Source: Macrostomum lignano (Eukaryota). From it: a stretch of 64,000 bases of DNA. Below are positions 1,166-1,378 of this stretch, in pieces. Positions within the stretch are counted from its first letter, which is position 1, and the number at the start of each line of letters is the position of its first letter. The notes under the pieces were generated by a model. It was not told the origin of the DNA. It worked only from the letters and a program-made list of their open reading frames with translations, and searched no databases. A program made the position numbers and the translations under genes. The stretch is taken from positions 39,262-103,261 of the forward strand of contig NIVC01003342.1 of the NCBI GenBank assembly GCA_002269645.1, written 5' to 3'.

Positions 1166-1378
1166 CTAACAATAGGCGCACTGCCGCAAACTACTTCTAC
1201 CTATCGGGCAATTCTGCCAGAGCTGAATATAATGTGAGTCGCTTAAATATTGTCCGCATATGCGATGTCTGTTTTCACAAATAATTGGTGGCTTGACAGC
1301 CAAGTCATCAGTTAAACATATTGGGCATTCGTAGAGTTGCTGTAGTTGGGGCGCCTGTTTGGACAGTGCGTTGCCCAT
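1166..1378 (-). CDS. Small accessory ORF: N-myristoylation motif plus degenerate SINA-like RING finger (70 aa)
   Basis: MGNALS fits MGxxxS and the context is acaATGG. Pattern CPIC-x12-C-x3-H-x2-C-x2-(Y)...CPI(G); the two missing Cys codons (TAT, GGT) are each one base from TGT. Lies between IN and the 3' LTR. Confidence 0.65.
   Translation of the reverse strand: MGNALSKQAPQLQQLYECPICLTDDLAVKPPIICENRHRICGQYLSDSHYIQLWQNCPIGRSSLRQCAYC

Follow-up and report, generated by a model that had tools for sequence, protein, structure and literature searches.

A truncated RING-finger gene and the tandem double-RING cassettes of a gag-env-pol Ty3/gypsy lineage in Macrostomum lignano

The element and its truncated accessory gene

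The window, the whole stretch of 64,000 nucleotides of the Macrostomum lignano contig NIVC01003342.1 that was analysed, holds a Ty3/gypsy element on its minus strand. The element has gag-env-pol order, and its protease, reverse transcriptase (RT), RNase H and integrase in that succession, paired long terminal repeats (LTRs) and a primer-binding site are all present. Its parts are as follows:

1..944, minus strand: 3′ LTR, starting about 129 bases outside (before) the window
945..1116, minus strand: spacer remaining after loss of the remainder of gene 1 and the whole of gene 2; 984-945 resembles the pre-LTR segment of long copies
1117..1165, minus strand: second-RING remnant past the stop, codons 72-88; homology to long copies stops at 1117
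1166..1378, minus strand: truncated accessory gene 1, 70 aa, with an MGxxxS start, RING 1 altered at ligands 6 and 8, the second RING begun, and an early stop
1405..1477, minus strand: conserved motif in non-coding RNA, predicted to fold into an H-type pseudoknot with an A-rich linker, followed by a stem, an internal loop and a hairpin that is itself conserved
1468..2709, minus strand: integrase part of the polyprotein (Integrase_H2C2, rve)
2839..5025, minus strand: polyprotein part with protease, reverse transcriptase and RNase H
4817..7228, minus strand: envelope-like part, flanked by gag and pol, that matches the viral fusion glycoprotein family PF24664 at E 2.2e-5, under the curated cut-off
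7105..8802, minus strand: Gag part, with a CCHC knuckle and the N-terminus MARRNP, lacking Gly2
9476..9487, minus strand: primer-binding site, its 12 letters identical to the Mlig_errantivirus_2 entry in supplement 2 of PMC13524379
9490..10564, minus strand: 5′ LTR, TG...CA, about 1,075 bp

The two LTRs are separated by no substitutions and three gap columns, and a 4-base target-site duplication flanks the element; the insertion is therefore very young. In unbroken copies a single reading frame of about 2,500 codons spans Gag, the envelope-like region and pol; the window copy is split into four frames. Among 11 examined copies of the window's truncated subfamily, one has the unbroken frame (2,480 codons); it was found in none of seven copies of the subfamilies whose gene 1 ends at 124 or 144 aa, and in three of seven copies with a full cassette, a set in which three of the seven stretches miss part of gag. 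Since the breaks mostly fall at different places from copy to copy, they are likely private mutations or assembly indels. On five contigs many copies and cassette variants lie in the same orientation within tens of kilobases, an arrangement that resembles a nested cluster or a piRNA-cluster-type locus.

Elsewhere in the window, a large tandem array with a 24-base period and about 180 copies occupies approximately 49700-54500, and minisatellites with 23-base and 13-base periods lie at 11300-11560 and 15150-15690, respectively. A dispersed repeat, 82-98% alike and present in opposite orientations, recurs at 17115-17333, 19817-19888, 44412-44656 and 61922-62009. The insertion has as its neighbour a minus-strand ORF of 241 aa, some 700 bases ahead of the window's first letter, which may be an exon of importin-13 or transportin-SR.

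A first-pass annotation had picked out a 70-aa ORF where retroviral accessory genes lie, and this ORF, its MGNALS start and the Cys/His pattern quoted for it are all confirmed on the minus strand from 1378 to 1166, between the integrase ORF (2709-1468) and the 3′ LTR. Because it is the only one of 94 ATG-initiated ORFs of at least 60 aa in the window to begin MGxxx[ST], and because its homologues show dN/dS far under 1, the ORF is, as judged from sequence, not a chance frame. Its description as SINA/SIAH-like holds for the C-x3-H type of the finger. In Pfam the 70-aa ORF by itself scores poorly, with its best match at E 0.035 and Sina_RING at E 0.94.

In a DNA search of the genome for further copies, the best 40 of 247 candidates were scored; 22 of these copies showed 96-100% identity and 18 showed 83-88%. 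Gly2 and Ser6 are invariant over the 22 close copies. The two altered zinc ligands, read earlier as a sign that this copy may be damaged, are real, but the damage is common to the subfamily rather than private: ligand 8 of RING 1 is Gly in all 21 close copies in frame at that column (22 compared), at ligand 6, of 21 in-frame close copies, 15 have Tyr and six have Cys, and the stop at codon 71 occurs in 20 of the 20 close copies in frame there. Cys at both positions is thus not the consensus of the close copies; it is the full-length members described below that retain the ligands. Altered at ligands 6 and 8 and cut by the stop within its second finger, the 70-aa product has an incomplete set of eight zinc ligands and is likely not a working RING; gene 2 is entirely missing from the window copy.

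Other young subfamilies carry a gene 1 that ends at 124 or 144 aa and keeps both RINGs. The cassette has been pared down several times during continued copying and is dispensable in cis, because subfamilies with a truncated gene kept multiplying. Variation within the window's subfamily amounts to 10 nonsynonymous and 4 synonymous changes in the gene (19 of 21 copies used) and 25 and 17 in the integrase (13 of 21 copies), too few for relaxed selection to be demonstrable.

Full-length genes and tandem cassettes

Long copies of the window's family (family 1) encode a 222-aa gene 1 product, consisting of two RING fingers and a helical C-terminal domain of about 115 aa, followed by a 210- to 212-aa paralogue, gene 2. 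By sequence, the window ORF is a fragment of this larger conserved gene. Two other families (families 2 and 3, integrase about 57-74% identical) hold two to three or more tandem paralogues behind pol; three element families carry RING cassettes, with full proteins of 200-222 aa. Some family 2 elements have three or more diverged RING paralogues in tandem, some of them split by other insertions. Genome protein searches, in each of which the best 150 candidates were scored, returned at least 145 and at least 150 matches.

Alignment of 25 full-length members yielded 16 invariant columns, mostly zinc ligands together with Arg61 and a WP motif; the invariant residues include C21, C34, H38, C41, C44, C60, R61, C67, C70, C79, C86, C101, C104, W147 and P148. 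In both fingers the eight zinc ligands follow RING spacing and are either invariant or at least 90% conserved. The paralogues are 20-35% identical, and RING 1 retains its eight ligands and the CPxCR arginine over paralogues that are otherwise about 20% identical; the arginine is absent from RING 2. In the tree, the first genes of the three families cluster apart from the later genes (support 100/99, with long branches flagged), and because of this grouping the gene duplication seems to be older than the split of the families.

Beyond the assembly, phmmer gave eight matches, four of them Logan proteins with the same double-RING layout; three Logan proteins were placed among family members on the tree. 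A UniRef entry labelled Macrostomum lignano holds a sequence near-identical to the family's second genes. A public 660-aa gene model appears chimeric, joining several second-gene copies with other, possibly LTR-derived, segments. Word-based protein searches found no relative for gene 1 or for the alignment, one paralogue query matching itself only, and a metagenome scan with one family protein likewise found no relative. For the whole protein the Atlas search yielded viral RING clusters of a generic kind; for residues 106-222 it yielded no match.

Nine outgroup gypsy loci of 10 kb each (RT 35-41% identical), selected from the best 150 of 4,080 RT candidates, all lack RING genes. Among the elements checked, the cassette is confined to a single lineage of Ty3/gypsy elements with gag-env-pol order. 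At five outgroup gypsy loci the position behind pol is occupied by other open frames, 266-366 codons long, which gave no convincing Pfam match.

Selection and exchange of cassettes

The first-pass annotation proposed dN/dS as a check. By Nei-Gojobori pairwise comparison, in which many between-family pairs are saturated, gene 1 has a dN/dS of 0.05-0.24 in those within-family pairs that are not saturated; values of 0.49 and 0.57, neither significant, come from two pairs of near-identical genes. All 14 pairs of later genes fall at 0.14-0.32. Constraint extends over both the RING and the helical parts (0.08-0.27), and the first 16 codons, with very few sites, range from 0.09 to 1.27. The cassettes of the three element families are thus under purifying selection, with dN/dS mostly 0.05-0.3. 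Purifying selection this strong over both the RING and the helical part is as compatible with a conserved partner as with an arms race.

Comparison of one element with the window's subfamily gave a pS of 0.007 in the RT and a dS of 0.94 in gene 1. As nearly identical RTs here accompany widely diverged first genes, cassettes have likely been exchanged between elements by recombination.

Predicted structure and affinity of the RING fingers

The AlphaFold model built from the family alignment has a mean pLDDT of 88.9 and a pTM of 0.81, and a model without RING 1 reaches 92.4 and 0.83; the C-terminal domain is modelled as all-helix with high confidence. Model residues 13-64 superpose on E3 RINGs with a modest Z of 4.2-4.3 and an rmsd of 1.9-2.4 over 46-53 residues. 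Searched against PDB sequences, the family profile finds RING E3s as its best matches, with SIAH1 first (E 2e-6), followed by TRIM21 and RING1B. In the comparison with arenavirus Z suggested earlier, no Z structure stood among the Foldseek and PDB matches listed, and no arenavirus Z family among the Pfam matches; a remote link may still exist.

With the full model as query, two Foldseek searches ranked RING proteins at the top, but no match reached E ≤0.001. With the model lacking RING 1, RING proteins again ranked first, as weak matches at E >0.001, and the fold of RING 2 is backed by weak matches. Among the weak Foldseek matches are ICP0 and giant-virus RINGs, which cover a single RING at E above 0.001. 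The helical domain has no fold or family match in the structure and Atlas searches; an ATP synthase delta-like assignment was rejected, its best Z of 4.8 being within chance range.

With Sina_RING, whose cut-off is 29.3 bits, gene 1 scores 18.8 bits and some of the later paralogues 30-33 bits, and 21 of the 25 members are matched at E ≤0.1; host SIAH genes score 62-63 bits. Host ORFs with a RING and a B-box-like part, also of C-x3-H spacing, match RING 1 about as well as host SIAH does. Judged by these similarities, SIAH and the RING plus B-box-like ORFs are alike candidates for the host donor of the RING. A cluster of the latter ORFs lies on one host contig, with matches on two more. No host gene with the whole double-RING and helical architecture was present in the five host stretches read.

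A RING fold alone is no proof of ligase activity, as arenavirus Z and MAT1 illustrate, and eight ligands together with the CPxCR arginine are typical of active E3s. From sequence and modelled fold, E3 activity of the full-length proteins is predicted. The invariant Arg61 directly after the last ligand of RING 1, in light of the role generally ascribed to this arginine, would be in keeping with E2 binding and ubiquitin transfer.

The N-terminal glycine

Gly2 is found in six of the 25 aligned members, all of them gene 1 of family 1, and two loci read MSNALS instead of MGNALS. Between the family 1 alleles MGNALSK and MGNAQSR, MGxxxS followed by K or R is preserved with synonymous sites near saturation, which lends modest support to a real myristoylation signal in this family. 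The first genes of families 2 and 3 begin MANTFEC, MAKKFEC or MDCPIC and have no in-frame MG within 30 upstream codons. None of the six Gly2-bearing proteins contains PPxY, P[T/S]AP, YPxL or YxxL; YxxL occurs in three of the four first genes of families 2 and 3, which are without Gly2. The first 600 aa of the polyprotein hold one YPxL-type motif and neither PPxY nor P[T/S]AP.

A conserved RNA motif and the expression of the cassette

An RNA motif of about 75 nt lies about 30-100 nt ahead of the gene 1 start and is kept in all three families. Under the pseudoknot-plus-hairpin model 98.6% of 213 cells are paired. Of its 18 pairs, two show compensatory changes, each within the helix of the pseudoknot, and 15 are invariant and hence uninformative. 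A pattern for the motif had 102 genome matches and none in the control, and the listed matches that were compared sit just upstream of gene 1 matches. Its 20-base hairpin core was found in 19 metagenome loci, many of which, by eye, share the layout with different stem sequences; at two of the 19 the motif stands directly 5′ of LINE-type endonuclease ORFs, and at one it forms tandem units. Scored automatically, the pseudoknot did better than at least 38 of 40 shuffled sequences in six of seven element rows and in seven of 20 metagenome rows; in the metagenome rows the best-scoring automatic fold sometimes differed from the one seen by eye.

Rfam gave no match over the motif, viral contigs gave none to it, and its hairpin is absent from the nine outgroup gypsy loci of 10 kb each. 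Nor could it be mapped by eye onto the folds, as generally known, of the HDV, twister, pistol or hammerhead ribozymes. No description of its letters was met in full-text literature searches, and PMC10085705 has no bearing on it. LINE 5′-end ribozymes (twister variants of Perere-3) can aid translation of a downstream ORF (PMC8501958), and ribozymes in viral UTRs of RNA viruses can drive it (PMC13725137). By analogy, the motif may work like these elements; it resembles the 5′-terminal ribozymes of non-LTR retrotransposons as a compact pseudoknotted RNA just 5′ of an ORF, but differs from known small ribozymes in having no Rfam match and in lying inside the genomic RNA of an LTR element, and its cleavage is hypothetical. 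For an LTR element, self-cleavage of its genome would come at a high cost, and the motif could equally be an initiation or packaging signal that stays uncleaved. Because neither the distance from motif to ATG nor the frame is conserved, scanning to the gene 1 ATG is favoured.

The later genes seem to be expressed in another way. CAG stands right before the ATG in six of 12 later paralogues and two bases upstream in two more, and in none of nine first genes; because of this difference, the pattern suggests that later genes are made from spliced RNAs. Contigs of presumed-RNA runs over the cassette of a long copy showed no GT..AG joint from LTR or leader to gene 1 or 2 among the matches listed, and among the matches listed no record with these genes is registered as RNA; this is no evidence either way, as contigs drop rare forms.

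Discussion

Taken together, we lean, with slightly better than even confidence, towards the reading that the window ORF is a truncated gene 1 of a tandem double-RING cassette after pol, and that the full-length products are element-encoded RING E3 ubiquitin ligases directed against host proteins. A role as an E3 against host defence had been one of the suggestions of the first-pass annotation, and it stands as the best reading on the strength of RING family sequence and fold; for the class of target the argument comes from the way the genes duplicate, are swapped and are cheated upon, and is an inference. Briefly, RING 1, with its eight ligands and invariant CPxCR arginine, is predicted to recruit a ubiquitin-charged E2, while the helical domain and RING 2 would act as a spacer or in binding the substrate. 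Each paralogue would act on a different target, presumably a silencing or antiviral factor of the host. Among retroviruses, accessory proteins like Vif and Vpu co-opt ubiquitin ligases of the host, and the best-known anti-silencing proteins encoded by mobile elements are those of plant DNA transposons (VANC). The repeated loss of the cassette would follow if the product diffuses, because cassette-less subfamilies such as the window's could then ride on protein made by intact copies. In one family only, the Gly2/Ser6 start may add membrane anchoring. Gene 1 would be translated via the upstream structured RNA and the later genes via splice acceptors just before their ATG.

A more far-reaching version of this reading appears doubtful. 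It holds that the elements carry a swappable battery of RING E3s in the style of large DNA viruses, that the RNA module is shared with LINE 5′ ends and may be a new self-cleaving ribozyme which frees a subgenomic RNA for cap-independent translation, and that the truncated subfamilies are cheaters on the counter-defence.

Several other readings compete with host-directed E3s. The proteins could be E3s or adaptors for the element's own particle, ubiquitylating Gag or Env for entry into the ESCRT pathway in budding or trafficking and so replacing late domains. The envelope-like region, the single YPxL-type motif and missing PPxY and P[T/S]AP in the first 600 aa of the polyprotein, the myristoylation-type start of family 1 gene 1 and the strong purifying selection all suit this possibility, which nevertheless leaves unexplained the several paralogues at 20-35% identity, the swapping of cassettes between elements of near-identical RT and the missing Gly2 in families 2 and 3; we regard it as unlikely. 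Equally unlikely, in our view, is that the proteins act without catalysis, as zinc scaffolds or decoys; they would then bind an E2, chromatin, a translation factor or a RING/TRIM partner from the host and control expression of the element. RING 2 without its arginine, a helical domain without fold or family match, and the C-x3-H spacing of host SIAH and RING plus B-box-like ORFs, which could be mimicked, are all in keeping with such a role; against it, RING 1 keeps eight ligands and the CPxCR arginine, residues typical of active E3s, across paralogues of about 20% identity.

The likeness to arenavirus Z on which the first-pass annotation built, that of a short myristoylated RING protein, is a product of truncation, for the full protein has two RINGs and a helical domain of about 115 aa. 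A Z-like myristoylated matrix protein that compensates for a Gag without Gly2 is accordingly very improbable. It was correctly noted that Gag lacks an MGxxxS start (it begins MARRNP), and the retention of MGxxxS with K or R over family 1 alleles near synonymous saturation speaks for such a protein; but Gly2 is limited to six of 25 members and the first genes of families 2 and 3 have no MG start, the six Gly2 proteins are without late domains, and Z combines a single RING with flexible arms (PMC3509680). The truncated subfamily, which has no intact gene, moreover still multiplied, which a matrix protein needed in cis would forbid, supply in trans being possible. Least credible of all is the proposal that the 70-aa product is itself a selected short form, for instance a membrane-anchored decoy, rather than a decaying fragment. 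Its frame is open for 70 codons in 20 of 22 copies, and other young subfamilies end at 124 or 144 aa with both RINGs; yet every in-frame copy lacks one ligand, 15 of 21 lack another as well, and in copies that are 96-100% identical an open frame is expected without selection.

Relation to known systems

The preferred reading, that of host-directed RING E3s, concerns elements of a published type. GAG-ENV-POL errantiviruses with an HSV/gB-type Env, among them Mlig_errantivirus_2, are described from Platyhelminthes, Bryozoa and Nematoda by Chary and Hayashi (PMC13524379). They resemble the window element in gag-env-pol order, many young copies and the same 12-letter primer-binding site; the LTRs of Mlig_errantivirus_2 are about 863 bp, compared with about 1,075 bp here. 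As to a gB-type Env, PF24664 at E 2.2e-5, under its cut-off, is a weak match at the sequence level. The terms accessory, zinc finger and myristoyl are absent from the main text of PMC13524379, and RING is absent from seven of its supplement files. For the giant planarian gypsy elements Burro/GYPSM1, Arkhipova and Yushenova (PMC6431247) list ubiquitination-related motifs (AIR1 'RING Zn-finger', MATH, BIR and Ubi/SUMO-like) and propose meddling with host systems. Burro, as presented there, is another gypsy element of flatworms in which env lies in frame, with gag before it and pol behind, and ubiquitination motifs occur; these, however, lie mostly inside a polyprotein of about 4,900 aa, whereas here separate tandem double-RING genes follow pol in an element of about 11-12 kb. 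Element type and polyprotein ubiquitin motifs (Burro) are therefore already published, and no description was found of a separate RING cassette or of the RNA motif. For the cassette this refers to full-text literature searches, with subscription journals and Repbase outside their scope; the main text on M. lignano LTR families (PMC12801592) makes no mention of ring, zinc or orf, and its supplements may annotate these ORFs.

Other comparisons are partial. SINA/SIAH E3 ligases share the C-x3-H spacing and the CPxCR end, and SIAH1 is the best PDB sequence match, but they combine the RING with zinc fingers and a TRAF-like beta-sandwich substrate domain in place of the second RING and the all-helical C-terminal domain modelled here, and family scores of 30-33 bits at best compare with 62-63 for host SIAH. 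Large DNA viruses also carry RING E3s, the herpesvirus ICP0 being one, and the likeness is that of a virus-borne RING; the difference is that the matches cover one RING. Arenavirus Z is 90-99 aa long; a myristoylation signal, a single central RING, flexible arms and late domains are described for it in PMC3509680; common to both is an N-terminal Gly2 before the RING, here in family 1 gene 1 only, while the present proteins are of 200-222 aa with two RINGs and their Gly2 group has no late domains. Bdelloid LTR retrotransposons carry a non-env ORF3 as cargo, and so resemble the present elements in having an accessory gene in the post-pol slot; in PMC5408684, which describes them, RING and ubiquitin are not mentioned.

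Implications

The flagged ORF itself is just a damaged fragment. A retroelement lineage with several selected RING genes would, if true, be of wider use, as the substrates would name the host defences that restrain retroelements, in a tractable stem-cell animal. The motif upstream of gene 1 is possibly a structured retroelement RNA that has yet to be described, and the cassette's repeated loss among young subfamilies would provide a natural example of a common good exploited by cheaters.
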